From: a virus
Lineage: Duplodnaviria; Heunggongvirae; Uroviricota; Caudoviricetes
Direction: 5' to 3' (one strand)
Virus record (IMG/VR): IMGVR_UViG_3300035655_000051
Span: 34,232-98,231 of that record
Length of the DNA stretch: 64,000 bases
Shown here: positions 13,161-37,905 of the stretch, piece by piece
How the letters are laid out: each line of letters begins with the position of its first letter
Position numbering within the stretch: position 1 is the first letter of the stretch
Notes under the pieces: generated by a model
What the model was told of the DNA's origin: nothing
Database searches by the model: none
What the model saw: the letters and a program-made list of their open reading frames with translations, nothing else
Made by a program: the position numbers and the translations under genes

Positions 13161-13649
13161 TTACTTCTCCTCCAGTTTCCATAGTTCTACGTCGACACCT
13201 TGAAATGTAGTATCGATTATTTTCTTAACTGTATTCCAATCAGCCCCACCACGACAACACCCAATCTTATATGGCATTGCTACTTTGAAGCCCTTGCTTC
13301 TTGCTTTTGTTGCGACAGTAGCGAAAGCGTGTTGTAGTGCAGCAAGATCTGTGTATTGTTTTCCATCATATCCGTAATTGTCTTGTGCAAAACAATTAAC
13401 GATACAACGATCATCAGACACCTTCACGAATTGAGCCGTACCCAAGAGAGTATGGTTGTGGTTCGTAATTGCGTTATAGCATCTTTTCAAATATGCGTAA
13501 TACACTTCTGGATAACGCTCGCGAACTTCTTTGGCAACACCTGACCCCATTACACCCTGACAATTCACCTGATGGCAAATAATGTCGGCATCGGAATCAA
13601 ATACGTTGCCTTCTTTGATTACAACAGCCATTAGAACTTCCCTCCCCAC
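13161..13649 (-). CDS. Macro-domain protein (ADP-ribose binding/processing)
   Basis: ICHQVNCQGVMGSGVAKEV matches the macro-domain VNAAN..L..GGGV motif. Confidence 0.65.
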   Translation of the reverse strand: MGREVLMAVVIKEGNVFDSDADIICHQVNCQGVMGSGVAKEVRERYPEVYYAYLKRCYNAITNHNHTLLGTAQFVKVSDDRCIVNCFAQDNYGYDGKQYTDLAALQHAFATVATKARSKGFKVAMPYKIGCCRGGADWNTVKKIIDTTFQGVDVELWKLEEK

Positions 13650-15109
13650 AGTCGGTCACGAACTTCTTTCAAACTGTACTCCTTGACCATCGCGCCATTA
13701 CGGAATACGGTTTGCAGCATGTTCCCGTCAGAATGAGCGGCGTGATCCATTAGGCCATCAGTACAAACCAGCTTTCCAGAATCATCCTTAGTGACATAAC
13801 ACATACCCTTCAGACTCTTCTTAAAGTGATCAGTGTCGGTCTTGGGGTCCTTGAAGATCTGAATCTCCTTGCCATTGACCACGCCATAAGTTGCCTTGAC
13901 TGCCATACCAAAAGTATCACGGGTGAACGGCTTCAACTGACCATTCTGCTCGATGCACTGCATGGAGAAAGAACCAACGCCGAGACTGACATTGTTGCAG
14001 GCGAAGCCGTGTGCTTTGAGTTCTGCATAAATCTTTTCGCAGCGCTGCACCGTAATGGAATCGCCATACAGAGCCTTTACATGAGGGTCTAGCACCTTAT
14101 AACCCTTACTGTTAACCGTGCCGCCGAAGATGTCCCACAGATGATAGACGGTCTGCGTAACGATTTCGACCGGATCGCCAGAGTCACCACGGATTAGCAG
14201 CGTACCATTATGAGCCATGATTTCATCCTTGAGCTGCGGCAGGATATTATCGACCAGATTCCAATAGTCGTAGGAATCAGATACCATGCTGAAGCTCATA
14301 TTGGGATACAACTCAGTCAGTGCCCGGCGGATGAAAGTGATCTCATCGCCATCGACTGCGAAGTTGGAACACATGACGCTATGCTCGGTACTAACAGCGC
14401 CAAACGCGACCGGCTCCTTAGTGCAATCACAGTGATACATCTCTTCCAGATACGGGACTGCAGGAACAGTGGCCGTATTCAAAAAGCTTAGACACCACCC
14501 AGCGCTGGATTTGACAGCAGACTGCATACACTCCTGACCACGGAAACTGAAATCGCCCAGAGCACGAGCATGAGGCACACCATCCTCGACGGTTTCATCG
14601 TAATACTTGTCCACGATATCACGATACAGAGTACCAACCGTCGCAGAAATCATCGGATGCCACAGCTCAGAACTCATAAATGATTCGAGGAACTGCGGAA
14701 CCCATGCAAAATCAGGATGCGTATTGCTCATCTCAAGGAACGGTACATGAATGGGGCAGCGAGTACCCTCGGGCAGTGCTTTGATCTCGACAGGAAGATA
14801 GCCCAGGTCATGCAGGGCAGCAATCTTATCGATATCATAAGCGTCCTTGCCAATGGTTGCGTCCAGGACACGCTGATAATTTGAGACAACCCACTCCTTT
14901 GGGAAATCAAAAAACCAACGTTTAAAATAATTCTGCAGATAATTCTTGCAGAACGCCTGAACACCAAACACAACGACTTCATCCACGCCATCCAGACGGC
15001 TCATGCGCGGAGTAAAATAACTGACCAGCTTAGTGGTGCCGGCCGGAAACTGCTTACTGTGAGTCGTCTTGTAGAAATCACATAGTAGCATCGGGTTAAT
15101 ATTGATCAT
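13631..15109 (-). CDS. nicotinamide phosphoribosyltransferase family protein (NadV/NAMPT-like; possibly a Namat-type nicotinamide ADP-ribose transferase)
   Basis: 492 aa, N-terminus PMLLCDFYKTTHSKQFP typical of the NAMPT family, directly downstream of a PRPP-synthetase-like gene. Confidence 0.8.
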   Translation of the reverse strand: MININPMLLCDFYKTTHSKQFPAGTTKLVSYFTPRMSRLDGVDEVVVFGVQAFCKNYLQNYFKRWFFDFPKEWVVSNYQRVLDATIGKDAYDIDKIAALHDLGYLPVEIKALPEGTRCPIHVPFLEMSNTHPDFAWVPQFLESFMSSELWHPMISATVGTLYRDIVDKYYDETVEDGVPHARALGDFSFRGQECMQSAVKSSAGWCLSFLNTATVPAVPYLEEMYHCDCTKEPVAFGAVSTEHSVMCSNFAVDGDEITFIRRALTELYPNMSFSMVSDSYDYWNLVDNILPQLKDEIMAHNGTLLIRGDSGDPVEIVTQTVYHLWDIFGGTVNSKGYKVLDPHVKALYGDSITVQRCEKIYAELKAHGFACNNVSLGVGSFSMQCIEQNGQLKPFTRDTFGMAVKATYGVVNGKEIQIFKDPKTDTDHFKKSLKGMCYVTKDDSGKLVCTDGLMDHAAHSDGNMLQTVFRNGAMVKEYSLKEVRDRLWGGKF

Positions 15110-18206: not shown

Positions 18207-20278
18207 TAAATCACCACTTTCAGAACTCGCTCAGTAGCCCCCTGCACCTTAACAATGAAGGAATCATGCTTCGTCTCAGAGAAGCCAACGCCAGACAGCT
18301 GGTCATCTACCGACTGAACTGCCATCTGAGAACCGAGAGCCTCAAATACTCGCTTATGCTGTAGCAGTTCTGCCTTCAGGAATTCGTTGTAGAAACCATT
18401 GGGCTTTTCAGGATTGATACAATCCTTGAGCATGAAGAAGTAGTGACGGTTGCCATTACCAGTCTGCTCATCCCAATAGTTCGGAGAGTACATGGCCACA
18501 GAAACAGGCACAAACTGATTGGAGTTCACACCCCAGATCTCGCGGGTGCTAGTAGAACTGGGCAGCAGCTCTTTGATAGAGAACTTGCCATCCTTCAGCG
18601 TGACTTTTGCCACGGCGACATCCTGACCCTGATGCAGTGGCTTATCATAGTTAAACGAGTAGATGTTGCCGTCGAATTCAATCTCGGCACGGAAACCAGT
18701 TTTACCACCACGACTAGCAAAACATCTCACATAGAAGCTGTACTCGCCTTCCTTCATCTTTTTGATATCAGGCCATGTAATATTTTCGACCGCAGCTTTA
18801 CCCTGATTAGGACGAGTGATATCCACATCCAAGCGGCCATTAGTACGAGGATTCCAACAGTTGCCGAAGTAGATGTGATTCTTATCGGGTTCAATGCAAT
18901 GAGCATCCTCATCATTTGCATCGTACTCACCCGGCACATCGTTCCACTGAATCGAGAAACGCAGCACACCGTCCACTTTACCGCCAGCAGCCTTAACGTT
19001 TTCGCGAATATCACTGTCTGTCATATTACCGGTATACGCCCAACTGAAACCATTAGGCCACTTGAACATACTCGGCGCATTCTTATCCTGCGGAGCAATC
19101 AGAGACATCATATTCTTCTCGAAACGATTCTCCATGAATAGTTCCAGCCCAGTCGCAGTCGGCAACACATTTTTGATGAACTTGTCAATGCTGATTTCCT
19201 CTGCACGGTTAAACTTCTTGGGATCAATCGCAACAGTCTTAGCCATTGCCTCAAACGGATTTGTAGCACCAGCAATACGAGGAGCGGCATCACGGTTGCA
19301 GAACAGGATATTGTTTGCGGTGATATCGTCCAGAGTAGCAAACCGACGACCCAGACTGTTCATATAACCCAGCTCGGTGACAGTCTTCTGTGCATCTTCC
19401 AACATCTTCTTGGTGAAAATCGCCTTGGGACGCTTATAGTTTGCGGGAGCGACAACCTTCTCAAAAGCAGTCACAGCGGAATCCACATCCATGCCTTCGC
19501 TCAGATTGATAAGAAGGGCGCCGATAGCGGTGTTACGAATACGAAGCTGCGCCGCCGTAGCATATGTAGGAGCAAGCCATACAAAGGCAAGCTTTTCATT
19601 AACAGACAGCTTGTCATAATCAATCTTATCGTGCTTAAACTCCTTTACAGACCGCTCAAACTCCTTGCCGCGATACAGACTATTCTGAGCAATCAGCTCT
19701 AGCACAGTATCAACAGCCTCCATGGTTAGCTCTTCCAGAGAACGCTTAAACACGTTTGCGGAGTCACGCCACTGTGCCATCTTGGTAGCTACGTCATCTC
19801 CACTGGTAATAAAACGCTGCGGAATCTTTACTGCGAAATGATCCCAAGTATGTACATCCTTGTGGTTTTCATCGTACTCGTAGTTCATCTCGGTGCCGAA
19901 CATGTCCCCAGAACCGATCATATTGCGACTGACAAAGTACGGATTCACAATGGCGCGGCTCTTTACATAGGCGGCCAGTGCATCAACAACAGGCTGATAT
20001 TTGGCAGACTTTGCATCGAAATCCCAGATGGAAATCAAATTATAATTCTTGTCAAACGCCACCAACTTGCCGATATTCTTTACAAAACGGCGGCAGCAGG
20101 AACAATCGTACTCGCGCCGCTTACGGAACAGCTCATTCGTGCCAGCCGGGAAGCTGTCAAGATACAGATTGTACAGTTCATCCTCGTCAGCGTCAGTGAC
20201 AAACAGGGGATTCTCACTCTTCACCATCTCATTGAAGTGGTCCTGCAGCAGCGCACGAAATTTCTTGAAATCAGACAT
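18206..20278 (-). CDS. large hypothetical protein (690 aa)
   Basis: Uninterrupted protein-like ORF; no motif recognised by eye. Confidence 0.7.
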   Translation of the reverse strand: MSDFKKFRALLQDHFNEMVKSENPLFVTDADEDELYNLYLDSFPAGTNELFRKRREYDCSCCRRFVKNIGKLVAFDKNYNLISIWDFDAKSAKYQPVVDALAAYVKSRAIVNPYFVSRNMIGSGDMFGTEMNYEYDENHKDVHTWDHFAVKIPQRFITSGDDVATKMAQWRDSANVFKRSLEELTMEAVDTVLELIAQNSLYRGKEFERSVKEFKHDKIDYDKLSVNEKLAFVWLAPTYATAAQLRIRNTAIGALLINLSEGMDVDSAVTAFEKVVAPANYKRPKAIFTKKMLEDAQKTVTELGYMNSLGRRFATLDDITANNILFCNRDAAPRIAGATNPFEAMAKTVAIDPKKFNRAEEISIDKFIKNVLPTATGLELFMENRFEKNMMSLIAPQDKNAPSMFKWPNGFSWAYTGNMTDSDIRENVKAAGGKVDGVLRFSIQWNDVPGEYDANDEDAHCIEPDKNHIYFGNCWNPRTNGRLDVDITRPNQGKAAVENITWPDIKKMKEGEYSFYVRCFASRGGKTGFRAEIEFDGNIYSFNYDKPLHQGQDVAVAKVTLKDGKFSIKELLPSSTSTREIWGVNSNQFVPVSVAMYSPNYWDEQTGNGNRHYFFMLKDCINPEKPNGFYNEFLKAELLQHKRVFEALGSQMAVQSVDDQLSGVGFSETKHDSFIVKVQGATERVLKVVI

Positions 20279-20549
20279 TGTTATTATTCTCCTTTAATTT
20301 TTCAATTTTATTTGTAACTTCAAAACTATGCCAAACCCAACTGTATTTATCCGTCCATACCTCGCCAGTCGGTTCCCCGTCAACGATATCGGTCATTCTA
20401 TCAGCCCCGGGTAAATCTGCCATATTGAAAAGACATTCCTTTGTCTCTTCCTCAATAAATGCAGCCGCTTCTTCCTTTGAAGTAAAAAAATCAGGCTGAA
20501 AGATTTCGCCATCTGAACTGCATTCGATCACGCACCAGATTTCATTCAT
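20271..20549 (-). CDS. hypothetical acidic protein (92 aa)
   Basis: Protein-like ORF. Confidence 0.5.
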   Translation of the reverse strand: MNEIWCVIECSSDGEIFQPDFFTSKEEAAAFIEEETKECLFNMADLPGADRMTDIVDGEPTGEVWTDKYSWVWHSFEVTNKIEKLKENNNNV

Positions 20550-20558
20550 ACAATCACC

Positions 20559-20816
20559 TCACAACAATGATTTGCAGCAAAGCGGTTTAGCCGGCTCAAG
20601 CATTTCATCACTCCATGACCAAAGACCGAATCCTTCTAAAACATATGTAATGTAGCAATGTGAAACCGTTGTAATCTTACCAGCGTAACTACACATAGCA
20701 CTATTAACTCCGGGACTAAATCCCCATCTTGTTCCACTTACCATTTTGTAACTTCCGGACTCATGAAGATCTGGGCGGACTCTAACTTTGTCGCCGGGTT
20801 TATACTTGTATTCCAT
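20559..20816 (-). CDS. CKSLL-tail family member 2 (ends ...PAKPLCCKSLL)
   Basis: N-terminus MEYKYKPGDKVRVRPDL... and conserved tail. Confidence 0.65.
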   Translation of the reverse strand: MEYKYKPGDKVRVRPDLHESGSYKMVSGTRWGFSPGVNSAMCSYAGKITTVSHCYITYVLEGFGLWSWSDEMLEPAKPLCCKSLL

Positions 20817-20825
20817 TTCAAATCC

Positions 20826-21110
20826 TCACAACAAACTTTTGCAAATCAAGTTCTTTGGACGATCAAACATTTCATCTGTGTAATAATATGTTTTTCCATC
20901 CTCAAGAATTTTGTATCGACCGTTTGCCTTGTGAGAAATATGTACAATTTGTCCACGATAACCTACTTGCCCACGTCCACTCCATGACGTCTCAATGCCA
21001 TTGGCATCCGGTTCTGGACCAGATCTCATGTAATAAACTGTTCCAGATTGAAGATCTTCCCTGACGCGAATTGCTTCTCCATTTTTATATTTGTATTTGC
21101 TTTTCGACAC
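20826..21110 (-). CDS. CKSLL-tail family member 3 (ends ...RPKNLICKSLL)
   Basis: N-terminus KYKYKNGEAIRVREDL... and conserved tail. Confidence 0.65.
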   Translation of the reverse strand: MSKSKYKYKNGEAIRVREDLQSGTVYYMRSGPEPDANGIETSWSGRGQVGYRGQIVHISHKANGRYKILEDGKTYYYTDEMFDRPKNLICKSLL

Positions 21111-21126: not shown

Positions 21127-21399
21127 TCATAATAGACTTTTACATGTAAACGGTTTTTTAGATTCTTCGAACATTTCATCTGTCCAATATCTGGAGCTTT
21201 CTTTTACCCTGTAACACATTACATTCCCACAACAATCATAACTCTCGATTGTTACTTGTTTCCCTCGAAGATTTTCCATAGAATGAATAGCAATAATGTC
21301 ATCATATGGAGTTTCTCCTGACAACATCTTGTATATTTTACGATCTGATAAATCTTTTCTAACCGTCACTTTATCTCCGGGTTTAAACTTATAGTTCAT
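21127..21399 (-). CDS. CKSLL-tail family member 4 (ends ...SKKPFTCKSLL)
   Basis: N-terminus MNYKFKPGDKVTVRKDL..., YWTDEMF, and conserved tail. Confidence 0.65.
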   Translation of the reverse strand: MNYKFKPGDKVTVRKDLSDRKIYKMLSGETPYDDIIAIHSMENLRGKQVTIESYDCCGNVMCYRVKESSRYWTDEMFEESKKPFTCKSLL

Positions 21400-21402
21400 A
21401 GT

Positions 21403-22218
21403 TTATTCTCCTTCAAACCAGTCGGAAACATTCTCAGCGACTTCATCAAGTTTTTCCTGATCCATTTTGATATATCTCATCGTAATACGTTGGTCGCTGT
21501 GATTAAATTTTGTTTGAAGAATATTCAAGATGTTCGCTCCATCAACTGTACCCTCGGCGCTTTGTAATGCTGCCATAGCATAAGTTTTACGCATACTATG
21601 AGTGGATAGCTCAATGTCCAAACCGCACGCCTTACCAGCTTTCTTCAAAAGGTTGCTCACCGATCTAACGTTAAGCTGTCCACCTTTCTTGCTCTGAAAA
21701 AGAAGCGTGTCACGGTCAATTCGAAAACTAATTGCCTGATAATATTCTCTTAAAGCTTCTTTTGCCATATGAGAAATTTTACACACGTTTCGCTTGCCGG
21801 TCTTCTGCTCGATCAGCTCAACATGATCTTTTACATGAGCGTTCTCATAATAAACATCAGCCGTTTTAAGCTTCAACAAATCGCCGCATCGAACACCAAT
21901 TGAACAGCCGAGAATAAACATCGTTTTGTTTCTAAGCGCGATTTCTTCAGATCCGTTAGACCCAAGGTACTCAACAATCTTCTTGAAATCTTCCTTTGAC
22001 TTGATAGGATCTGCCGGGGTTGGCTTTCTGCGCCCATCCTTGAGATAAAGACTATCCGTCCGACGAGGTTTCCGTGCTTTTTTCGTTGCAGTGGCACTTT
22101 TAACTGCCTGCTGAATAATTCGTTCAATATCGTCCTCTGTAACGACGAGTTTTGCAGGCCGATCTTCAACTGGGAAAAGAATGGTTTTTTGTGCCACTTT
22201 CTTTGCGGTTTCTGCCAT
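21403..22218 (-). CDS. tyrosine site-specific recombinase (phage integrase family)
   Basis: C-terminal catalytic region ...ELSTHSMRKTYAMAA...MRYIKMD has the R...HxxR...Y arrangement; 271 aa. Confidence 0.75.
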   Translation of the reverse strand: MAETAKKVAQKTILFPVEDRPAKLVVTEDDIERIIQQAVKSATATKKARKPRRTDSLYLKDGRRKPTPADPIKSKEDFKKIVEYLGSNGSEEIALRNKTMFILGCSIGVRCGDLLKLKTADVYYENAHVKDHVELIEQKTGKRNVCKISHMAKEALREYYQAISFRIDRDTLLFQSKKGGQLNVRSVSNLLKKAGKACGLDIELSTHSMRKTYAMAALQSAEGTVDGANILNILQTKFNHSDQRITMRYIKMDQEKLDEVAENVSDWFEGE

Positions 22219-22232
22219 TAAAATTCACTCCT

Positions 22233-22496
22233 TTACAAAAGACTTTTACATGTAAGTGGTTTTGGAGACTCGAACATCGTGTCAGTCCAATAATGGCTAT
22301 CCTCACAGAGCGTATAAACACCGCAGATTTGGCATTCGATTGTCATAAGTTGACCACGGTGTCTTTCCATATCTTTATTAACTCCCGGATCGCAGCCATA
22401 ACTTTCTCCGCTTTGCATTGGATATTCTGCGCCGGCTGTCAAGTCTTTCCGAATTCTTACTTTTTGTCCAATTTTATATTTGTAATCCATAATCAA
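22233..22496 (-). CDS. CKSLL-tail family member 5 (ends ...SPKPLTCKSLL)
   Basis: N-terminus DYKYKIGQKVRIRKDL..., HYWTDTMF, and conserved tail. Confidence 0.65.
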   Translation of the reverse strand: MIMDYKYKIGQKVRIRKDLTAGAEYPMQSGESYGCDPGVNKDMERHRGQLMTIECQICGVYTLCEDSHYWTDTMFESPKPLTCKSLL

Positions 22497-22771
22497 TCTC
22501 TTTTCTAAATTGTGAGTAACAGTTTGGCTGGAAGAACATTTGCGAGATAATTTGGAGGGATCTTTGATCCCGGAAGCATTGTCGAGTAAATGTTCTGATG
22601 GCCAATGAGTCGCAGTGATTGCAGCCGCGATCTCCAGCTCTGCTGGGATTAGGCTGCAGAACGGAGACTCCGCACTTGCGAACTAATTTGATCCATAGCT
22701 CAGGAGGGCGAGGCTGCCAACCTCAGGCAGCCCATGGAGCCCGTATGAGCGTGCTATGGTATTCTTCATAA

Positions 22772-22788
22772 CCGTCGGTCATCCGGCA
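22772..22788 (+). repeat. hairpin motif copy B (CGTCGGTCATCCGGCAG)
   Basis: 7-bp stem CUGUCGG/CCGGCAG with a 4-nt loop on the plus strand. Three copies in the window (22772, 24638, 36978). Confidence 0.5.
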
Positions 22789-22836
22789 GCTCGCGACGTA
22801 AAACGCCCGATATTCAAAAGAGATTACAATATATAA

Positions 22837-23175
22837 TTACTTGGATTCTTTGTCCTGTTTTCGCAGTTCATCAACAAGACATTCCAAACAGCTCTGTAGA
22901 GCGTCGTGTCCGGCCTCAAGCATTGCCTGATGAATATTCACTTCAAAATCACACAAGAGATCTGCACATAAGCTCATATCCTCTGCATCGATTTCTTTGA
23001 TGCCAAGCTCCTTGATTGCGCTTGCAACGTCGGAAGGCCCCCAATAGACCATTGCTCTGTGGTCGTCGATATCCAACAGGTCAACTGGACACCCGATGGA
23101 TTCCTCTACGACACTTGCCGCTTGATCGAGCAATTCAACTGGAGTGCCGCCATCTCTACACATCATTTCAATCAT
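22837..23175 (-). CDS. small acidic protein co-transcribed with the RT (112 aa)
   Basis: Its start overlaps the RT stop (ATGA); acidic and Cys-containing; no motif recognised. Confidence 0.5.
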   Translation of the reverse strand: MIEMMCRDGGTPVELLDQAASVVEESIGCPVDLLDIDDHRAMVYWGPSDVASAIKELGIKEIDAEDMSLCADLLCDFEVNIHQAMLEAGHDALQSCLECLVDELRKQDKESK

Positions 23176-24410
23176 TAGAAAACAACTCCTTCTTTTGGTT
23201 TTAAGTCAGCTTTGAGCATTGCCATCATATCAACATGATACTTTTCGTTGTACCGAGAAATCACCGTGTCGACCGATTCTTTTTCTACCATACGGTAGTA
23301 ATTCAGCCTGCCATTAAACTGCTGCAGGTCTTCAAGATCCCACGTTTTTCCTTCTTTCTTGCAGACGATGTAATTAGATGCCATCTTCTTAAAGTCCTTA
23401 AAATTGCGCCATCCGACTGTGATATCGTTATTGGCATTCCACATCAGACCGAGCATCCAGTTTTCGCTCGAATGCCGATTACCATAATGCGTTTTTTCTT
23501 CATTCAAAGTAAACGGAGCATTGATTGCATCCAACATCTCTTTGATGATATCCTGCATTTCCATCGGGTCAAAACTCAAATAGCAGCTGATGGTGATATC
23601 GTCTGCATATCTGGTGTATGTAAAAGTGCGAGAAATGCCGTCTTTCATGGTATATTTGTAAGAAAGCTTCTTATTTAACATATAATCAAACGGGATCATC
23701 ATAACGTTCGTGATCCACGGACTGATTGGCGTTCCCTGCGGAAGACCGCCGTTCAAGAAGCACAGGCGCATCGCTTTAGTCAGCTGGTTGTATCCATTTC
23801 GATCCTTCATAATGAGAGAAAACGGATAAATCTTGCTGAACATGCCGTAGATAAACTCAGGAGTGGAGCTCGGGAAGAATCCATGAAAGTCAAACTTGAC
23901 AGCCCAGTTGTTTTCATAGGTGACGATCTTTTCTTTCCCAGTCTCACGATCTTTTACTGTATATCTGTGTCCCGCCTGATGCTTTTTAATTGCACTCAGA
24001 GTGCCGCGCCCATTGATATATGCGTGTGCTGCCGTGTGATAATCAGCAATCATGAAACTTTTTAACAGCGTCCGCAACTCAACCAACGCATCGCTCAGTT
24101 CATTGTTCGGTGCATCAATTGGACGAACGCCACCAGTCTTCTTAGGAATTTCGAAGTGATAGTAATGCGTCGACAGGTCACGTACCGCTTCAAGACGGGC
24201 GTATTTCTGATTGAATTCCGTAAGCCGTGTAATCATATTGGTAACGTTTGTAATGGCTACGAGACGATCATTCAACCCATTACGCTGTACAGTTCGAGTA
24301 GAAGTTTCATCGCCAGCATATTTTAACTGGTTCACGTCAACGACTCCGCTAAGGATTTCATCAAACGTAATCTGCCTTGTTCTCGGCGGATTCCAATAAG
24401 TAACGTACAT
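23175..24410 (-). CDS. reverse transcriptase (retron/group-II-like, YADD type)
   Basis: RT motifs FEIPKKTGGVRPIDAP (1/2), LPQGTPISP (4), TYTRYADDITIS (5), FTLNEEKTHYG (6/7). 411 aa, no endonuclease domain. Confidence 0.85.
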   Translation of the reverse strand: MYVTYWNPPRTRQITFDEILSGVVDVNQLKYAGDETSTRTVQRNGLNDRLVAITNVTNMITRLTEFNQKYARLEAVRDLSTHYYHFEIPKKTGGVRPIDAPNNELSDALVELRTLLKSFMIADYHTAAHAYINGRGTLSAIKKHQAGHRYTVKDRETGKEKIVTYENNWAVKFDFHGFFPSSTPEFIYGMFSKIYPFSLIMKDRNGYNQLTKAMRLCFLNGGLPQGTPISPWITNVMMIPFDYMLNKKLSYKYTMKDGISRTFTYTRYADDITISCYLSFDPMEMQDIIKEMLDAINAPFTLNEEKTHYGNRHSSENWMLGLMWNANNDITVGWRNFKDFKKMASNYIVCKKEGKTWDLEDLQQFNGRLNYYRMVEKESVDTVISRYNEKYHVDMMAMLKADLKPKEGVVF

Positions 24411-24435
24411 ATGTTTACCTCTTCTAAATCGTGAT

Positions 24436-24679
24436 CTAAATGGTGGTTTGTATGCTCAGGGAGGTGCCTTCGACGGGACGTCTTCCTGCGAGTTTGCGTT
24501 TTGAGCTCATTTCCGGTACGTGTCTACGTTGATTATTTTGATCGACGAATCAGCATACCTGCAGAGTCGACGTACGCCGCATGCGATCACACGCCTCGGT
24601 TTTCCGGTGGGATGTGTATGATCTTACCTTTACGAACCTGTCGGTCATCCGGCAGGACTGTATATTTCAACAGTAATTC
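24436..24679 (-). ncRNA. candidate retron-like msr/msd non-coding RNA upstream of the RT
   Basis: About 245 nt of non-coding DNA bounded by a 9-nt inverted repeat (ATCACGATT at 24680-24688 and AATCGTGAT at 24427-24435). The second repeat sits just before the RT RBS, as a1/a2 repeats do in retrons. Contains palindromes around gcatgcggcgtacgtcgac. Confidence 0.3.
24638..24655 (+). repeat. hairpin motif copy A (CTGTCGGTCATCCGGCAG)
   Basis: Same 18-nt hairpin as at 22772 and 36978. Copies A and C share about 100 nt of extended similarity. Confidence 0.5.
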
Positions 24680-24702
24680 ATCACGATTTTTTTATTTATT
24701 CT

Positions 24703-25377
24703 TTATGCAGCCGTAACGTTAAAAGTGTACGGATTTGCAACGATCATTTTCTTCAAAGGTGCGATATTGGTCGCGAAATTGATAAAGTTCGTAACCGCCA
24801 AACAACACACGAAACGAACAGTCGGGGCGAGACCTTGAACGATGCCACATGCAGAAACCGGAGTGCCAGCCTGCGCATCTTCATGAGAGAAGTTCATAGA
24901 ATTCCATAAATTCTCTCGGTCTTTTTCCTTGCTCCAATCCGCTGCCCAGCACTGTGCATCATGGAATCCAGTGCGGACATCAAACACGCCCTTGATGTTC
25001 GGGTTGTACTTGTTCGCTTCCATGAACTGCTTGCGAATTTCGATGTTGTCGACCGCGAGGAACACATAACCGCGAATCATCTCGCCCTGCCAACCATTCG
25101 GCTTCAGAACGATTTCATCTTTGGCATCAGGATTGATGGCACAGATAATATCGCGAACCGCCTCGACTTTTGGAGCTTCAATATTGTTGGCGAAGAACAT
25201 CTGGTTGACGATATTCTTGCTTTCAACCTCGTCCATATCCCACAGCGTGAAATTCTTCAGACCATACCGTGCGAGAAGTTCCGCCACGGTAGAGCCAACC
25301 GAACCACAACCAATAATGTGGATCTGGCCGCTGATATCATCGGGGTTGAATACCATTTCAAGCTTACTCAGATTCAT
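24703..25377 (-). CDS. E1-like (ThiF/MoeB-family) ubiquitin-activating-type enzyme
   Basis: IHIIGCGSVGSTVAELLARYG (GxGxxG Rossmann), DMDEVESKNIVNQ and KVEAVRDIICAINP match the ThiF/E1 adenylation-domain pattern. Confidence 0.75.
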   Translation of the reverse strand: MNLSKLEMVFNPDDISGQIHIIGCGSVGSTVAELLARYGLKNFTLWDMDEVESKNIVNQMFFANNIEAPKVEAVRDIICAINPDAKDEIVLKPNGWQGEMIRGYVFLAVDNIEIRKQFMEANKYNPNIKGVFDVRTGFHDAQCWAADWSKEKDRENLWNSMNFSHEDAQAGTPVSACGIVQGLAPTVRFVCCLAVTNFINFATNIAPLKKMIVANPYTFNVTAA

Positions 25378-25392
25378 TTTGTAGTCCTTTCT

Positions 25393-26289
25393 TTAATTGT
25401 CATACGGAAAACAGCTGGAATTCCAGCACGTATCAAGATCTTCTGGATTCTCCTTGTAATAATTGACCAATGGATATCGAGTCTCAGACACTTCATTGAC
25501 TTTCGGAGCCGCTGCACCAGTTACCGTCTTGATTTGCGGCACTGGCGTTTGCGTGGCAACTGTTTGCGGGTACGTTTTTTGCGGCGTAACTGCTTTACCA
25601 TAGTAGGTGCCTGCTCCATAAGCTCCGTAATTTGCGACTGTGCTTGCGACATATACAGGGCGCTTTCGAACCGTTTTGTCTGCATCTTCGAGAAATCGAG
25701 TCGAGTCAAAATCTCCAACAGTAACCTTGACATCGGCTCCCTCATAGATGACATTGTCGGCCAGATCAATGACGCGAACATTGTACTGCCGCTTCTTGTT
25801 CCAGATCATAAAAATCTGATAACTCGTCGGCTTGAGTCCGTCAATGAATCGCCACTGATCCTCCATATCGCGGCTGCTCGGCGTTACACCGAAATCGACA
25901 TGGCTGTGTCCCTGAAATCTCAGGTTGCGAATCGTTTCAACAGGCAGCGCCTGAAACCACTTTGAAAATTCTTCCTGATCGGTGTCTACGGTGGTGCCAG
26001 TTACAGTCTGAGGATACAGCAGAATTTTGGTAATCTGAAAATGCGTCTTATCGATACGATTCACGATGCCGCGCCATGCAACCTCACAATCGAAGTGATC
26101 AATCAACGCAAACATCTGAGAATACGCTTCATAGGTGAAATTCACCTCGACAGCATCCTTCTTAACAGACGCAAAATTCTTCTTGTATGAGAAAGAATCC
26201 GTCTTAACCCTACCGGTCTTATACAGCTCCTGAACAAATTCACGTGCCATATCTGCTACAACCTGCTCCGTGATATTAATGGGTTTCAT
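25393..26289 (-). CDS. JAB/JAMM (MPN+) metalloprotease-domain protein
   Basis: QGHSHVDFGVTPSSRDMED matches the JAMM motif HxH-x7-S-xx-D; 298 aa with a Thr/Pro/Gln-rich C-terminal half. Confidence 0.65.
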   Translation of the reverse strand: MKPINITEQVVADMAREFVQELYKTGRVKTDSFSYKKNFASVKKDAVEVNFTYEAYSQMFALIDHFDCEVAWRGIVNRIDKTHFQITKILLYPQTVTGTTVDTDQEEFSKWFQALPVETIRNLRFQGHSHVDFGVTPSSRDMEDQWRFIDGLKPTSYQIFMIWNKKRQYNVRVIDLADNVIYEGADVKVTVGDFDSTRFLEDADKTVRKRPVYVASTVANYGAYGAGTYYGKAVTPQKTYPQTVATQTPVPQIKTVTGAAAPKVNEVSETRYPLVNYYKENPEDLDTCWNSSCFPYDN

Positions 26290-27793
26290 CTTCAGCGACC
26301 TCCTTCTTTACTGCTTCTGCTGGTGCTGCTGCGTCCTTTTCGTTCTTGAGAATGTCAAACACTTCTGCCACCGTGTACAGATTACCCGCGTTATCCTCGA
26401 TACACTTGCGAGTTTTGATATAGGATTCGTCAAACAAATCATACATGAGATCGCTTACAACGGTGCCATCCTTCCAGTTGATGGATGCGCTTGAACCAAT
26501 AATCGTAGTCAGGACGCCAATGTAATCGTGTTTTACACTAAGCGCATTGAGCATCTCTCGATAACCGCTATAGCACGCATGCCGATCGATATGAGGCTGA
26601 CGAATACGATCCTTCATCAAATCAGAGCGACCTTGCATATCAGAACCACGAACTGCTTCAACCTTGCAGCTGGAATACAGTCGCCATTCACAGTAGGTGC
26701 GAATAGCGAACCGATGTGTCTTCCAAATTGACACAAAGAAATCTTTCGTAAGTTCCGTGTCATACGGCGAACGCTGAAAAATGTAGCTTCGACTATTTGC
26801 CTTTTTCTCAACACAAGTGCGGAACTCGCCCTCATCACAATCGTTCAGCGTGCCAACATAACCAATAGAGATTCGATCACTGTTGGAGTCAAGATAAACC
26901 AGCGTCTTGCAGCGCTTCAGGAAATTAACAATTGCAGCTTCGTCATCCTCAGTGCAGCAAGCACGGTCCATGATCATAGTGAGTTTAAATTGAGCTTCTT
27001 CAAGACTTTTATTTCTCTCACGGATATCGTTATATTTACTTTCAATATCATCTTGAATACTACGAATGTATCGTTCCTGCCGAGAAATTTCGTTGGCGTA
27101 ATCCTTCTTGCAAAATCCCTTCAGAGCACCACGCAACTTCTTACCATAGAAATCGCCGGTCTCGTATGCCTTCTCCATGTATTTGCCGAAAGCTTTGTTG
27201 TCCTGATCATAAAGAGTACGCAGCATCGCCTTCTCATCATCAGTCAGCGGCTGATCAGCGAAAAACCACGGCATCAGGTTTGGCAAACAACTCGCTGCCA
27301 TGTGCATGGCCTGAATCAGATTCTTCTTAGCACAAACAACGACAACACCCTGCTTCTTTTCATTCTGATATACATAGACATTGCCATTCTTATCGATGTA
27401 CTTAGCTGCGACATCCATGATCTTCCAACCGGCAGCTTCGTAATCCGCATTGTACTTCTTGAACTCAGAAATAATGGCGTCTGCTTTCTTATCGTCGATC
27501 GTCTGAAACATGATGCCAAATTTCATCTGATTGAAAGCGTTATCTTCATGAACGAACATGTCCTTAGTGAACTTTTCGTCGTCGCCCATATAGAAATGTT
27601 GGCAATCAATAATTGACTGAATGCGATGTCCTCCCGAAATAGAATGCTTGATACGGTCATCATTGATCAGTACGCGCAGTACGGACAACATCACATTATC
27701 GTTGAGATTGCTATTGTCGCAATTCAGAATCAACGGATATGCTTCGTCGCAATCTCTCGAACCGATCTTGCTGGAATAAGCTGTGAAAGCCAT
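26276..27793 (-). CDS. large hypothetical protein (505 aa) in the E1/JAB operon
   Basis: Protein-like ORF overlapping the JAB gene start; function unknown (could be an E2-like or target component). Confidence 0.6.
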   Translation of the reverse strand: MAFTAYSSKIGSRDCDEAYPLILNCDNSNLNDNVMLSVLRVLINDDRIKHSISGGHRIQSIIDCQHFYMGDDEKFTKDMFVHEDNAFNQMKFGIMFQTIDDKKADAIISEFKKYNADYEAAGWKIMDVAAKYIDKNGNVYVYQNEKKQGVVVVCAKKNLIQAMHMAASCLPNLMPWFFADQPLTDDEKAMLRTLYDQDNKAFGKYMEKAYETGDFYGKKLRGALKGFCKKDYANEISRQERYIRSIQDDIESKYNDIRERNKSLEEAQFKLTMIMDRACCTEDDEAAIVNFLKRCKTLVYLDSNSDRISIGYVGTLNDCDEGEFRTCVEKKANSRSYIFQRSPYDTELTKDFFVSIWKTHRFAIRTYCEWRLYSSCKVEAVRGSDMQGRSDLMKDRIRQPHIDRHACYSGYREMLNALSVKHDYIGVLTTIIGSSASINWKDGTVVSDLMYDLFDESYIKTRKCIEDNAGNLYTVAEVFDILKNEKDAAAPAEAVKKEVAEDETH

Positions 27794-30378: not shown

Positions 30379-30464
30379 TGGTGCGCCCGGCGGGACTTGA
30401 ACCCGCACGCCATCTCTGGCAGAAGATCTTAAGTCTCCTGTGTCTGCGATTCCACCACGGGCGC
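30379..30464 (-). tRNA. tRNA-Leu (anticodon TAA), type II
   Basis: Acceptor GCGCCCG/CGGGCGC + A + CCA, anticodon loop CTTAAGA, long variable arm, T-arm GCGGGTTCAAGTCCCGC. Confidence 0.8.
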
Positions 30465-30772
30465 ATATAAAAGAAAATCAGAAACAGCCAACATTCGTTT
30501 TACGTTCCAGTTTACTGGCTACCTGAAGGGTATTCGTCCGACAGCTACTCGGCTTGCACCTTATTCCCCTTCCTATTTGGCTCAGTATCATTTACCGGTG
30601 TGATACCTGTCGTTTGCCAATGAACGGCCAATCCCCGATCTAGCTGGAACAACTGATTTTCTATTCCTCATTTAGTTAGAGACCTAATGAGTAAAGATGT
30701 CTACCTACACCGGTTGTGGACGGACTTACCCGGCTGGATTTCTATGTAGGAGTCTCAAACCGTCGCACACAA

Positions 30773-30847
30773 TGGAGCAGCGAATGGGAGTCGAACCCAC
30801 GCCATCGACTTGGAAGGACGATGTACTAGCCGTTATACGACCGCTGC
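30773..30847 (-). tRNA. tRNA (probable Gly, anticodon TCC; one anticodon-stem mismatch)
   Basis: Acceptor GCAGCGG/TCGCTGC + CCA, T-arm GTGGG-TTCGACT-CCCAT, anticodon loop CTTCCAA. Confidence 0.55.
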
Positions 30848-30966
30848 ATATAAACCCGGCTTACTAAGCCTTATTGCCACAGCATACGCCATGGAGCCGG
30901 GAATAACAAGGAAGAAAAGAGGTAAAGCCCGAATAGGAGGAATGAGACCCTATAAGCGGGCATCGG

Positions 30967-31035
30967 AGTGACTGGTTGGACTTGAACCAACGGCGCGCAG
31001 TTAGCTTGCTGCTCTACCATCTGAGCTACAGTCAC
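30967..31035 (-). tRNA. atypical short tRNA-like gene (68 nt, anticodon arm and variable loop about 4 nt too short)
   Basis: Perfect acceptor GTGACTG/CAGTCAC, canonical D-arm GCTCAGATGGTAGAGC and T-arm GTTGG-TTCAAGT-CCAAC. Only 19 nt remain for the anticodon arm plus variable loop, with a possible GCAG/CTGC stem and 8-nt loop. Confidence 0.4.
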
Positions 31036-31188
31036 ATAAAATACTCGGCTTACAAAGGTCAACTGCACTCTTTCAAGTGAGCCGAGAATAATTGACGAAG
31101 AAGTATAAAAATGAACTCCCCCTTTCGGGGTGGTATCTCGCACAGGCGCGGCCGGATCTGACCGCTAAAGATCCTACCCATACGAGAT

Positions 31189-31275
31189 TGGTGCTCACAA
31201 GAAGACTCGAACTTCCACGTCATAAAAGACAAGGGACCCTAAAACCCTCGCGGCTGCCAGTTTCGCCATGTGAGC
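31189..31275 (-). tRNA. tRNA-Leu (anticodon TAG), type II
   Basis: Acceptor GCTCACA/TGTGAGC + A + CCA, D-arm GGCGAAACTGGCAGCCGC, anticodon loop TTTAGGG, long variable arm, T-arm TGGAAGTTCGAGTCTTCT. Confidence 0.6.
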
Positions 31276-31412
31276 ATATCAAGAGCAGGGTTGCGTACCT
31301 GCTACGACTTGTTCAGTCACGGTTGTCTTATGTTTGGAGGGACACGAAAACAACTAATCCGATATAAAGGAGAAATATGAGAATACGAGGGACGCAATGA
31401 CCAAACGCCCCA

Positions 31413-31498
31413 TGGTGCAGCTAGTCGGATTTGAACCGACACGGATTTTCACCAGCAGATTTTGAGTCTGCCGCGCCTGCCTATTACGCCATAGCTGC
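31413..31498 (-). tRNA. tRNA-Leu (anticodon CAA), type II
   Basis: Acceptor GCAGCTA/TAGCTGC + A + CCA, anticodon stem GCAGA/TCTGC with loop CTCAAAA, long variable arm, T-arm CGGTTCAAATCCG. Confidence 0.8.
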
Positions 31499-34218: not shown

Positions 34219-34296
34219 TACTAAAAAATGGTGGGCCAGGAGGGATTTGAACCCCCGATCAAGCAGTTATGAGCTGCCGGCTTTAACCAGACTAAG
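34219..34296 (-). tRNA. tRNA-Met/fMet (or lysidine-modified Ile) (anticodon CAT)
   Basis: Acceptor GGGCTAG/CTGGCCC + A + CCA, D-arm GCTTAGTCTGGTTAAAGC, anticodon stem GGCAG/CTGCT with loop CTCATAA, T-arm GGGGG-TTCAAAT-CCCTC. Confidence 0.8.
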
Positions 34297-34675
34297 CTAC
34301 TAGCCCAAGAGAGGAGGATTTAACCATGTAACGACACCAGCTGAGTACATTGCATTCGACTTACGAACTTTGCGAAATGCAACTTACAGCATCAGTGGAT
34401 ACAACCAAAGCGTCTTAACATCCTGTCCTTTGGTGTCCATCCTCAAAGACTGCCCTTTTAAATTCACTCTCCGCCAGCTTGGGCACCAACTGACTAGACC
34501 ACTTTCGCAGGTCATCCATTCGCCTACTCATGTTGTCACCAGACCTTCACTCCACGAGGAGCTACCCCGTCGCAGTCTGTTCGCACAATTTCGGTCAAAG
34601 CGTTATGAATGCATTGCATCCACGGTGGAATTGCGCCACCCCAGCGACCTCGCACTACACTACGCTGCCACATCG

Positions 34676-34725
34676 AACCTAGCTGGAACCCAACAGAATC
34701 GAACTGTTGTACGACCATCGGCTCC
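34676..34725 (-). ncRNA. tRNA-like minihelix (acceptor plus T-arm only)
   Basis: Minus strand GGAGCCG-ATGGTCGTAC-AACAG-TTCGATT-CTGTT-GGGTTCC-A: canonical T-arm and a 6/7-paired acceptor stem, but no D-arm or anticodon arm. Confidence 0.35.
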
Positions 34726-34829
34726 ATATAAAGCAGGGTTATCGTACCTGCTCGGCATTTTCAGCCACGCGGTTTCGCCTAATGGAAACCGTTTTTATAC
34801 ACACAATAGGCACAGGTAGAAAGGAAAGA

Positions 34830-34906
34830 CCCTGTACCATGGTCGAGCATGAGGGATTTGAACCCTCGACTTCTTGCGCCCAAAGCAAGCGCCCTTCCAA
34901 ACTGGG
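34830..34906 (-). tRNA. tRNA-Pro (anticodon TGG)
   Basis: Acceptor CGAGCAT/ATGCTCG + A + CCA, D-arm GCCCAGTTTGGAAGGGC, anticodon stem CTTGC/GCAAG with loop TTTGGGC, T-arm GAGGG-TTCAAAT-CCCTC. Confidence 0.8.
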
Positions 34907-34974
34907 CTAATGCTCGATATATGCCGGTCTTTCCCGGCTGTCAGTCCCAAGGACAATGGAGGAAAGTAGATAGC

Positions 34975-36522: not shown

Positions 36523-36977
36523 ATGATAACACATTTTCTCTGCGTCGTCAATTGTTATTATAAACAGAACTTAAACATACTTTTTGTACTATTTTTGTCG
36601 ACTACCTTATTTATAATAGGCGTTAGGCAGCGCCTCAATTAGCTATGCATAAATCATTGTATATTATTCATCCTTTCTGCATATTTATGCATTATTATTC
36701 ATCGAGATCTAAATGATGTTGTTGCTCTTTTAAGCTCTCAAGAATTGATCTTAAAAAGGTCCCGAAGTTGATCAGTACCCGTCCAACTCGCGTTGATTGA
36801 GTTCAATTGATGAGCTTCTGTCGAACTTTGATGAGTTACTTCGTTGAGTTTCGGGCGTTTTGCAACCAAATCGCCTTGCTCGGCGTTCAGTGGTTCTGGG
36901 TCTGACGTCCGTCGACTCGTTCGGAGGCTGAAGGCAGGCCCCTCCGCCCCGGGATACCTCATCCTACCTTTGCGTAA

Positions 36978-36995
36978 CTGTCGGTCAACCGGCAG
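36978..36995 (+). repeat. hairpin motif copy C (CTGTCGGTCAACCGGCAG), with about 100 nt of flanking similarity to copy A
   Basis: cctttgcgtaactgtcggtcaaccggcag...attcatctcgatgttttta aligns with cctttacgaacctgtcggtcatccggcag...attcatcacgattttttta at 24626-24700. Confidence 0.5.
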
Positions 36996-37262
36996 CCGTA
37001 ACTGAAATACGTATTCATCTCGATGTTTTTACGATAACCTCAACGATGTTTTCCTAAGACGTGTTATCGGACGCGGTCATAATATCACCTCATTTCACAC
37101 CTTCGACCGTCTATGTAATTCTTGTTTTTTCGTTTCGCACGCTCTCCGTGACGGCTAGGAAGCCCCGCAACGGCTTTTCTGTGCTTCGTAATGAAATTCC
37201 ATTACAACGCATCAAAACCGCGTATAGTGCCATCTATGCCGTTCTGGCGACGTGTGCCGGCA

Positions 37263-37622
37263 TCAACTGCGTTCCGCGACATCTTTATCTGCCCACATCG
37301 AAACATAAAACACAGCTTCACCGAGATCCGACTTAAGATACCCCTCCAAGCCGCCAATAGTGTTTTTAATCTCGAAGGTCACCTTGTCGCCATTGATCTC
37401 GAACAGATGACCATCTCGCTTACGCTTGTTACGACAAGTGATAAAGTCCTCACCAGCCGCACCCTGCTCAAGCTTGACCCACTTGGTAGGAACCCGAATC
37501 AGAACGAACGACGAATCGTCACCGCTCCGAATCGAGAACTGATCGTACTGTTGGACAAGCCCGACGAACTTATCGAGGGTGAATTCATATCGACCGGGCT
37601 CAAAATTAGTCATATTGGTCAT
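37263..37622 (-). CDS. hypothetical protein (119 aa) with long purine-rich 5' leader
   Basis: ORF preceded on its own strand by RBS GGGAAGGAGAAAAC and an about 170-nt polypurine tract. Confidence 0.55.
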   Translation of the reverse strand: MTNMTNFEPGRYEFTLDKFVGLVQQYDQFSIRSGDDSSFVLIRVPTKWVKLEQGAAGEDFITCRNKRKRDGHLFEINGDKVTFEIKNTIGGLEGYLKSDLGEAVFYVSMWADKDVAERS

Positions 37623-37905
37623 AAAAGTTTTCTCCTTCCCTGCTTTCTTCTCCGCTGCTTCTTCGCTTTCGCTTCCTTCTCTCCGTTCTCCCTGATGGTT
37701 CTTTTTCCCTTAACAATCCTTTTAACTCCTATAATCCTCTTACTACACAACCATCACTATCACATCATCATCACTACATCAAACATCCTATTCTTTTTCT
37801 AAATTTTTTCGCCGTCACTCGCTCATCGCTCGCCACGGCTTCAAATCAGAGACGCTTCGCGATTGGACTTTGCCCAAACCCATTCGTTATTTCGTTTCTG
37901 ATTTT

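Follow-up and report, generated by a model that had tools for sequence, protein, structure and literature searches.

The sequence analysed here, called the window throughout, is a stretch of 64,000 nucleotides from a virus of the Caudoviricetes (positions 34,232 to 98,231 of IMG/VR record IMGVR_UViG_3300035655_000051). The element in question consists of a gene for a retron-type reverse transcriptase (RT) and three copies (A, B and C) of an 18-base hairpin motif, CYGTCGGTCAWCCGGCAG. Over approximately 1–52 kb of the window the minus strand carries nearly all long open reading frames (ORFs) and all of the 11–12 tRNA genes, and GC skew is negative. Along this strand the genes for p505, p298 and a ThiF/E1-like protein are followed by motif copy A, the RT, orf112, copy B, orf87 and a tyrosine integrase, and copy C and a Bro-N gene are found 12 kb from this RT-proximal group. 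We consider it likely that the motif is the second stem-loop in the msr-like 5′ part of three paralogous retron-type non-coding RNAs (ncRNAs), and that this shared hairpin probably lets one RT use three templates.

Searching both strands of the window with the pattern CTGTCGGTCAWCCGGCAG and up to two mismatches returned exactly three matches, all on the plus strand, compared with an expectation of 0.01 from 100 dinucleotide shuffles, none of which reached three. Copies A and C match exactly and copy B (CCGTCGGTCATCCGGCAG on the plus strand) carries one mismatch. The threefold occurrence reported in the original prediction was thus confirmed, as was the rarity of the motif: no further site in the 64 kb was returned by an nhmmer profile covering the entire 5′ module, and relatives carry at most three exact copies per contig, including near-complete contigs of 145–150 kb. 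The seven-position stem is also as described there, with T·G on the plus and C·A on the minus strand. The similarity of about 100 nt that had been noted around copies A and C is real (74% identity, 24616–24695 versus 36953–37031) but shorter, approximately 84 nt, and is accompanied by a separate short common block, CATTTAGATCNCGAT, 250–300 nt away on the other side. Between the two blocks identity is at the random level of ~48%, and copy B is ~60% identical over the same module. What had been taken for one similarity of 100 nt is therefore two conserved modules on either side of a variable core.

Read on the minus strand, all three copies lie within a common frame: a segment a1, an invariant G, hairpin 1, the motif hairpin (hairpin 2), a conserved box, a variable region of 170–240 nt, the sequence UUUAG and a segment a2 (Table 1). 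The a1/a2 sequences are wholly different among A, B and C and each pair is perfectly complementary, a compensatory change of U-A to A-U separating C from A. Unconstrained minimum free energy (MFE) folds close a1/a2 with 10, 11 and 9 bp in A, B and C, respectively, and the MFE fold of ncRNA-B has a z-score of −4.1. The MFE folds of A and C contain both hairpin 1 and hairpin 2; in B, hairpin 2 is present in the centroid fold and in the RNAalifold consensus of 11 orthologues, which shows both hairpins. Hairpin 1 differs in sequence among the three RNAs but is found at the same place in each. When a segment of 9–10 nt ending before the G was required to find its complement within 400 nt, shuffled sequences succeeded 8 (A), 3 (B) and 3 (C) times per 5000. 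The complement is directly preceded by UUUAG in all three RNAs, and this junction is a coincidence independent of the pairing. The second pair of copy B is U·G in the window and U-A in 10 other aligned orthologues. Because orthologues of A, B and C differ by single-base indels, the three RNAs cannot be coding. The 15 nt between ncRNA-A and the RT start codon contain a Shine-Dalgarno sequence, and the ribosome-binding region of orf87 overlaps with a2 of B. Retron ncRNAs are described as having ends that pair, 'two opposing G residues', between one and three hairpins in the msr and a branching G (PMC7736814; PMC8632793). With a1/a2, two Gs and msr hairpins all present, the frame of A, B and C matches this defining layout.

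Table 1. Coordinates of the three ncRNAs, their parts and the neighbouring genes (window positions).
Feature	Position	Strand	Remarks
ncRNA-A, RT-linked msr-msd-like RNA	24426..24689	−	264 nt; ends 15 nt before the RT ATG (24410)
a1 of A, AAAUCGUGAU	24680..24689	−	perfect complement is a2, 24426–24435
Candidate branching/priming G of A	24679	−	directly after a1, then AAU; U-G invariant in alignments
Hairpin 1 of A, ACUGU-UGAAAUAU-ACAGU	24657..24674	−	MFE fold
Motif copy A (hairpin 2), CUG-C-CGG AUGA CCG-A-CAG	24638..24655	−	3 bp, C·A 1x1 mismatch, 3 bp, tetraloop
Conserved box of A, GUUCGUAAAGGUAAGAU...	24616..24637	−	common to C; degenerate UCG.AA..G.UA in other clades
Variable msd-like region of A, putative template	24441..24615	−	~175 nt
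UUUAG junction of A	24436–24440	−	ends in 'opposing' G 24436
a2 of A, AUCACGAUUU	24426–24435	−	
ncRNA-B, orphan	22495..22825	−	331 nt; before small-protein gene orf87
a1 of B, AAUCUCUUUU	22816–22825	−	
G of B	22815	−	
Hairpin 1 of B	22792–22809	−	
Motif copy B (hairpin 2), CUGCCGG AUGA CCGACGG	22772..22789	−	
UUUAG junction of B	22505–22509	−	
a2 of B, AAAAGAGAUU	22495–22504	−	
ncRNA-C, orphan	36700..37025	−	326 nt; before Bro-N gene
a1 of C, CAUCGAGAU	37017–37025	−	
G of C	37016	−	
Hairpin 1 of C	36997–37011	−	
Motif copy C (hairpin 2), CUGCCGG UUGA CCGACAG	36978..36995	−	
UUUAG junction of C	36709–36713	−	
a2 of C, AUCUCGAUG	36700–36708	−	
Retron-type RT, 411 aa, YADD active site	23175..24410	−	Pfam RVT_1 3e-13, PADLOC, NCBIfam, PDB
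orf112, small and very acidic protein	22837..23175	−	start overlaps RT stop; no family match
orf87, member of tandem paralogue family	22233..22490	−	ATG 22490; directly downstream of ncRNA-B
Tyrosine integrase	21403–22218	−	~550 bp beyond copy B
Bro-N domain protein, 500 aa	34975..36477	−	own sigma-70-like promoter 36551–36523
p505, 505-aa protein	26276–27793	−	
p298, JAMM/MPN (JAB) protein	25393–26289	−	
ThiF/E1-like protein	24703–25377	−	Pfam ThiF 7e-21

An exact-pattern scan of IMG/VR recovered 44 loci, 40 of them from ~20 near-identical phage contigs of up to 150 kb. The 79 RT loci that were fetched fall into clades of ~98%, 65% and 45% RT identity, and a further 73 loci came from metagenome-assembled genomes (MAGs) from the guts of many animals, mostly binned as Clostridia, with RTs that are 36–45% identical. 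Among these (L178–L250) the RT contigs were binned with Clostridia families and also with Alistipes, Prevotella, Odoribacter and an 'archaeon'; because the MAG taxa are so different, this suggests that they are phage contigs mis-binned into host MAGs.

The spacing of A and B is constant (1866–1880 bp) in the near-identical contigs with both sites, and a1 and a2 are complementary in all near-identical genomes. In every RT clade the region upstream of the RT has this frame wherever it could be parsed, which applies to almost all IMG/VR loci and to ~25 of the 46 MAG loci inspected, the remaining MAG loci giving no or an unconvincing repeat under a strict perfect-repeat search. It is also found, both Gs included, in distant members, and no clade departs from the arrangement of two hairpins behind the G. 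Across 13 distinct a1/a2 types 94.6% of positions are paired and nine of ten pairs vary on both sides, which none of 500 shuffles reached. The U-G after a1 and the G-A opening a2 (G19, A20) are invariant in these diverse types.

The original prediction had implied that the plus strand is the meaningful one, a view that is not supported. One relative (L007) combines an altered a1, CAUUGAGAU, with an unchanged a2, AUCUCGAUG; another (L057) carries a1 AUUGUGAU with a2 AUCACGAU; and copy B of the window (CCG...CAG on the plus strand) is C·A on the plus strand and U·G on the minus strand. Because all of these U·G variants pair on the minus strand only, the functional RNA can be assigned to the minus, RT-sense strand.

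Hairpin 2 is present in the MFE folds of ~130 of 135 distinct 5′ modules and follows one plan: an outer stem of 3–6 bp, a 5′ bulge of one nucleotide or a 1x1 mismatch, two to three G-C pairs and a loop of 3–6 nt. The outer stem covaries (CUG/CAG, CAA/UUG, GCACUC/GAGUGU, GCAUUU/AAAUGU, GCUCUU/AAGAGC, ACCCUC/GAGGGU and ACUCUC/GAGAGU), and the plan persists in MAG loci with RTs just 36–45% identical. Since a bulge or mismatch is retained across the family, the C·A 'mismatch' is the family's conserved unpaired position and no accident of strand. The hairpin was compared across clades using per-sequence MFE folds rather than a single consensus; MAFFT and RNAalifold on the 5′ modules of all clades recover only part of hairpin 1, because the bulge and mismatch registers differ between clades.

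More than one ncRNA accompanies the RT in other clades as well. In the 45% clade one ncRNA lies before the RT, a second starts ~25 nt after the RT stop and a third precedes a Bro-N-like gene. The 65% clade has one ncRNA before the RT, and its contigs with further copies carry one or two orphans before a Bro-N-like gene; in one case (L145) these are two tandem orphans with a1/a2 of AUUGAGAU/AUCUCAAU and GAUUUGUGAU/AUCACAAAUC, and their GAAU and UUUAG junctions are the same. A Bro-N-like gene thus follows an orphan ncRNA in three of three RT clades examined. Among the distant MAG loci with a parsable hairpin, 9 of 19 have a second copy of the apical sequence 60–700 nt past the RT stop. The frame is kept in hundreds of related gut-phage contigs with RTs that are 36–99% identical, and the majority of the contigs examined have two or three of these RNAs for each RT. 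This recurrence points to two or three ncRNAs per RT as a trait of the family. Paralogues within one genome have apical hairpin 2 in common and differ in a1/a2, hairpin 1 and core, and between lineages the apical part itself differs. Sharing within genomes combined with divergence between lineages is the pattern expected of an element by which an RT would recognise its own RNA, and engineered multitrons demonstrate that one retron RT can serve several ncRNAs (bioRxiv 10.1101/2023.07.17.549397).

The cores of the ncRNAs behave differently from their conserved modules. Two strains whose flanking genes are 94–96% identical have A cores that are only 69% identical; in this core some pairs change on both sides, and there are a few compensatory pairs. 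The cores of C and of its counterpart C′ are 53% identical, that is, the core has been replaced. In the C′ strains (loci L019, L025, L043 and L044) the downstream Bro-N protein is 42–58% identical and the upstream neighbour p119 93–97%. As Bro-N identity drops where the core is swapped while that of the neighbour stays high, the ncRNA-C core (36714–36950) and the Bro-N gene have been exchanged as a unit, which suggests a functional pairing of template and Bro-N protein. ncRNA-B is conserved (94%) apart from one hypervariable hairpin loop. This hairpin (22711–22733, minus strand; GGGCUGCC-N7-GGCAGCC) has an invariant stem and a loop of 6–7 nt that is hypervariable among near-identical strains, with the variants UGAGGUU, AACCACA, UGGGGUU and A-ACUCC. 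No similarity or complementarity, and no target or partner strand, was detected when the three cores were compared with each other and with the rest of the 64 kb.

The RT itself has its best matches among retron RTs in PADLOC, NCBIfam and the PDB. PADLOC gave RT_II-A as the best match (2e-37), and all 25 of the matches listed were retron RTs. With NCBIfam models it scored 148 bits for retron_St85_RT, followed by the Ec67 type (94), group II intron (59), Drt2 (40) and Drt3a (26), and 12 of 12 chains matched by sequence in the PDB were retron RTs (Ec83, Ec78, Ec67, Ec86 and Kva2). The protein has an N-terminal extension of 80 aa. Homologues are numerous, with 3,927 at E ≤ 1e-10, and at least 524 IMG/VR stretches encode a relative.

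A model that would accommodate the observed frame, complementarity and covariation, strand, family-wide hairpin architecture and multi-copy layout is as follows. The RT would recognise the shared hairpin, namely the GC-rich apical stem and loop below the conserved one-nucleotide bulge or mismatch, and the presence of the same hairpin on three RNAs would enable one RT to act in trans on all of them. Priming would occur at the 2′-OH of the G that adjoins a1, and the RT would copy the RNA immediately 5′ of a2, from ...UUUAG onwards, with the strain-variable region serving as template, to yield three different multicopy single-stranded DNAs (msDNAs). From the sequences we infer that the RT binds the hairpin, that the three RNAs are reverse-transcribed and that three msDNAs are formed, and the shared hairpin is the best candidate for the element recognised by the RT. 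The biological role may be phage-borne exclusion or defence, a counter-defence decoy or control of the downstream genes. A wider proposal, which we put forward tentatively and hold to be somewhat less probable than its opposite, is that a widespread family of large gut phages carries a hitherto undescribed type of retron, whose single RT would take its templates from two to three separate ncRNAs through a shared docking hairpin and make several different, rapidly diversifying msDNAs. Functionally coupled to a ubiquitin-like-system pair (the E1-like ThiF protein and the JAMM/JAB protease), to the 505-aa protein and to Bro-N proteins that are swapped along with their cognate template, it would act in multi-channel exclusion, counter-defence or gene control on the phage side, rather than as a one-RNA toxin–antitoxin retron.

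Several observations weigh against a retron interpretation. At 148 bits the RT lies below the curated cut-off of retron_St85_RT (235) and below that of every retron model. Retron RTs carry the signatures NAxxH (region X) and VTG (region Y), of which the H and the G have been called the most conserved residues (PMC7736814, Mestre et al.). In a phmmer alignment to Ec83 and Ec78, NAxxH (NAKIH) is replaced by AIKKH and VTG by MLG, so that only H and G are kept; these residues, H144 and G321, are invariant within the RT family. Because it scores below the cut-off of its nearest retron model, the RT is best described as a divergent, unclassified relative of retron RTs. Scans with Pfam, PADLOC and NCBIfam found no known retron effector domain next to the RT; by linkage, orf112, Bro-N and the E1-like/JAB/p505 block are candidates. 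The ncRNAs are long (264–331 nt), and Rfam at gathering and permissive thresholds returned no retron msr or other family over them. When the putative complementary DNAs (cDNAs) were folded as DNA, z-scores were −5.3 for B, −0.1 for A and −1.1 for C, a long stable msd hairpin being evident in B alone. For the covariation count, a2 was itself located through its complementarity to a1, which leaves the junction motif as the independent check, and at the third copy of the 45% clade the a1/a2 junction is less regular. With the window's clade held out of its alignment, an nhmmer profile recovered none of the three sites significantly: A and C gave partial matches at E ~1–4 and B gave none; homology across clades is therefore structural and positional rather than a matter of sequence score.

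Other explanations of the motif were weighed against this evidence. It might be a palindromic operator lying over the −35 element of three co-regulated minus-strand promoters, with a dimeric regulator on the inverted repeat. Copy C can be read as TTGACC-16-TAGGAT, with 9 of 12 consensus matches, and copy A as ATGACC-16-TAAGAT, and each of the three copies lies upstream of a minus-strand gene and is followed by a long untranslated stretch. Copy B, however, offers no acceptable −10 (TACCAT, and TACCAC in several relatives), and the other RT clades keep the hairpin architecture with loops of AGAU, YAA and UYAUAU and no −35/−10-like hexamers, so that it is the pairing that is conserved and not a DNA word. 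The motif lies 25–35 nt downstream of a1, and a start there would exclude the covarying a1 from the transcript. The Bro-N gene has a better promoter of its own, and the 480-nt leader it had been credited with resolves into a separate ncRNA of ~326 nt followed by this sigma-70-like promoter. A sigma-70 promoter or operator was rejected, as the hexamers are confined to the window's clade while the pairing is kept elsewhere, and we give this reading a very slim chance. Slightly slimmer still is the chance of recombination sites, on which the neighbouring tyrosine recombinase would act or which would serve to exchange cassettes, as attC does at the borders of integron cassettes. In favour of such sites, A and B form direct repeats exactly around the 1.87-kb RT–orf112 segment, an integrase gene lies ~550 bp beyond B, and the variable region of ncRNA-C and Bro-N are swapped together between strains. 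Yet no excised, inverted or empty site occurs in own-clade contigs holding both sites, and the ~20 near-identical genomes are without rearranged sites. The usual tyrosine-recombinase core has arms of ~11–13 bp and an overlap of 6–8 bp; the 7-bp arms and 4-nt spacer of the motif are unlike it, and a tyrosine-recombinase core or attC was rejected on these grounds. Just 3 of 44 distant loci have the integrase near the RT, while hairpin and multi-copy layout are retained, and the similarity around the motif is fully covered by the ncRNA modules (a1, G, hairpins and box). The recombinase targets listed among the candidates of the original prediction are accordingly not supported.

Least probable of all, to the point of being hardly credible, is a plus-strand element, whether an intrinsic or bidirectional terminator or a structured plus-strand RNA. 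On the plus strand copy A does resemble a terminator, with eight pairs and a T-rich tail, and the asymmetry of T·G (plus) and C·A (minus) is real. Against this, the T-rich tail is found at copy A only, the minus strand has no U-run, and terminator-like sites in the region number 13, compared with 13.7 in shuffles. There are no credible plus-strand genes in 20–40 kb, and both GC skew and all tRNAs indicate transcription of the minus strand. The unpaired position is a bulge or mismatch conserved across the family, and three independent wobble variants pair on the minus strand only. An intrinsic terminator was accordingly rejected, the T-rich tail of copy A lying on the plus strand, which has no genes here, and with it the bidirectional terminators that had been proposed. 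Of the candidate functions in the original prediction, RNA-binding sites and targets of the retroelement come closest, the hairpin lying inside retron-type ncRNAs. Its exclusion of a template repeat/variable repeat pair of a diversity-generating retroelement (DGR) stands, as the differences are of all kinds, all copies are non-coding and the RT is retron-like. A further alternative, unlikely but deserving more weight than those above, accepts a retron origin and holds that B and C, and perhaps A, are not reverse-transcribed, being decaying relics of duplicated retrons or cis-acting leaders to which the RT or another protein would bind via the hairpin and so control the RT, orf87 and Bro-N. A gene follows directly on each ncRNA, a2 of B extends into the ribosome-binding region of orf87, A and C have no convincing msd hairpin, and type VI retrons join the template and a translationally repressed effector gene in a 'hybrid RNA' (bioRxiv 10.1101/2025.10.22.683967). 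As relics, however, the orphans would hardly be expected to keep a perfect a1/a2 with compensatory changes of their own, both Gs and the hairpin in three RT clades (99–45%), and roughly half of the more distant loci retain a second hairpin copy downstream of the RT. Simple cis control is difficult to reconcile with the ~220 nt and the independent promoter that separate C from Bro-N, and a leader with regulation as its sole function would have no obvious need of the priming geometry, in which a1-G faces G-a2. Because this geometry is fully retained across the three clades, we argue that the orphans are probably primed; regulation and reverse transcription could also coexist in them.

On the retron-type reading preferred here, the element can be placed beside known systems. 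Canonical retrons (Retron-Sen2/St85 and Retron-Eco1/Ec86, type II-A; Ec78 and Ec83, type I-A) resemble it in RT similarity, in an ncRNA immediately upstream on the same strand, in an a1/a2 duplex ending in two opposing Gs, in short msr hairpins on the 5′ side and in a variable template region on the 3′ side. In contrast to these, the phage element has three ncRNA genes per RT, two of them unlinked to it, and its carrier is a large (~145–150 kb) uncultured gut phage family. Its RT is below the curated cut-offs, is extended by 80 aa at the N terminus and has NAxxH and VTG reduced to H and G. Its ncRNAs are 264–331 nt long, A and C having no clear single msd hairpin; it has no recognisable effector and is tightly linked to the block of E1-like, JAB and 505-aa proteins. 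In type VI retrons (Retron-Vpa2; bioRxiv 10.1101/2025.10.22.683967), which feature a helix-turn-helix partner, translational repression and trigger-dependent msDNA, the template RNA continues into a small-protein gene; comparably, a2 of ncRNA-B reaches over the ribosome-binding region of the small orf87. The phage element, however, has no helix-turn-helix partner, belongs to another RT clade and shows this layout in one of three RNAs. Multitrons, or retron arrays, provide one RT with several ncRNAs or msds that have common msr recognition elements, as proposed here (bioRxiv 10.1101/2023.07.17.549397); those arrays are synthetic and based on Eco1, whereas the phage layout occurs naturally, is spread over 14 kb and has been kept throughout a phage family.

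Class 2 defence-associated RTs (DRT2, DRT3 and DRT9) also have an RT gene preceded by a structured, cDNA-templating ncRNA of a few hundred nucleotides. The similarity of the phage RT to them is much weaker (Drt2 40 and Drt3a 26, compared with 148 bits), and they lack an a1/a2 duplex with opposing Gs. DGRs of phages combine a phage-encoded RT, a nearby repeat and strain-to-strain variability. A DGR was rejected because the RT does not resemble those of DGRs, the copies do not differ specifically at adenines, none of them is part of a coding region and similarity is confined to structural RNA modules.

Retrons have been described as one RT, one ncRNA and one effector, forming antiphage systems borne by bacteria or prophages. 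On most testable points the phage element agrees with retrons, and it departs from them in template number, large-phage carrier, RT clade, effector and template regions. Megablast of 22–26 kb against GenBank phages gave no match, and a protein-mode search found only one unannotated human-faecal record (67%); neither search revealed a close relative among annotated phage records. In the full-text literature we found no description of phage-encoded or natural multi-ncRNA retrons, of the RT of this phage family or of a retron linked to ThiF/JAB genes. If our reading is correct, one RT would be templated naturally in trans, a principle so far only engineered as 'multitrons', and the 18-nt hairpin would offer a compact, ready-made specificity element for multiplexed retron tools. 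The IMG/VR stretches and RT homologues counted above make the element a common, unannotated feature of gut viromes, carried by a family of large, uncultured phages from animal guts. The turnover of templates between strains, co-replacement of Bro-N and the conserved E1-like and JAB neighbours point to a role, so far unexplored, that reverse-transcribed DNA plays for the phage in its conflict with the host. For annotation, three long 'leaders' and a false small ORF (36738–36962) would be explained. This minus-strand ORF lies within ncRNA-C and is frameshifted in two relatives (L001 and L007), and the plus-strand ORF 37191–37802 is less conserved than p119, the minus-strand ORF that it overlaps; on these grounds neither is likely to be a gene.

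Among the neighbouring genes, the p505/p298/ThiF block (24703–27793) lies directly upstream of the ncRNA-A/RT unit. In 44 distant loci ThiF is near the RT in 41, p298 in 40 and p505 in 35, with ThiF on the other side of the RT in one (L205), whereas the genes downstream of the RT are not kept. An association of p505, p298 and ThiF with the RT may be proposed from this synteny. p298 has an invariant JAMM motif, E...HSH-x7-S-x2-D, and a Foldseek search with its AlphaFold2 model matched Rpn11, CSN5, JAMM1 and BubCD at 2e-9. Searches with p505 and the C-terminal part of Bro-N gave no informative matches.

The product of orf112 contains 26 D+E and 8 K+R in 112 aa. The gene follows the RT in the 98% and 65% RT clades and is missing from the 45% clade; it has few homologues, no family match and no PDB sequence match, and its AlphaFold2 model is poor (predicted local distance difference test score of 65). 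orf112 is translationally coupled to the RT, and from its composition one might speculate that it is akin to DNA-mimic proteins. orf87 belongs to a family of 85–94-aa proteins with at least five tandem paralogues on the minus strand (20271–20549, 20559–20816, 20826–21110, 21127–21399 and 22233–22490). The array is broken by the integrase gene and has further copies in relatives; only its last member is preceded by an ncRNA.

Elsewhere in the window the tRNA genes form three clusters (179–1764, 30379–31498 and 34229–34916), and coding strand and GC skew switch near 52 kb. Beyond this switch an 849-aa protein (56218–58767, plus strand) matches Pfam PF05183 (RdRP, the cellular RNA-dependent RNA polymerase family) at 2.8e-14, a family to which the YonO-like and crAss-like single-subunit phage RNA polymerases are related. 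Given this protein, the phage promoters here may not be sigma-70-like. A NAMPT-like nicotinamide phosphoribosyltransferase is encoded at 13631–15109 (minus strand), a PhoH-like ATPase at 50653–51999 (plus strand) and a 356-aa protein at 2454–3524 (minus strand); the last has a weak, sub-threshold match to the core-binding domain of the MrpR recombinase (1.9e-05; 25.7 bits compared with a cut-off of 27). A Twister-P5 ribozyme match with an intact conserved core is found at 42384–42474 on the minus strand, where it scores 46.5 bits against a gathering score of 37.6 and sits in a gene-free gap of 735 nt (41805–42539) between two minus-strand ORFs.

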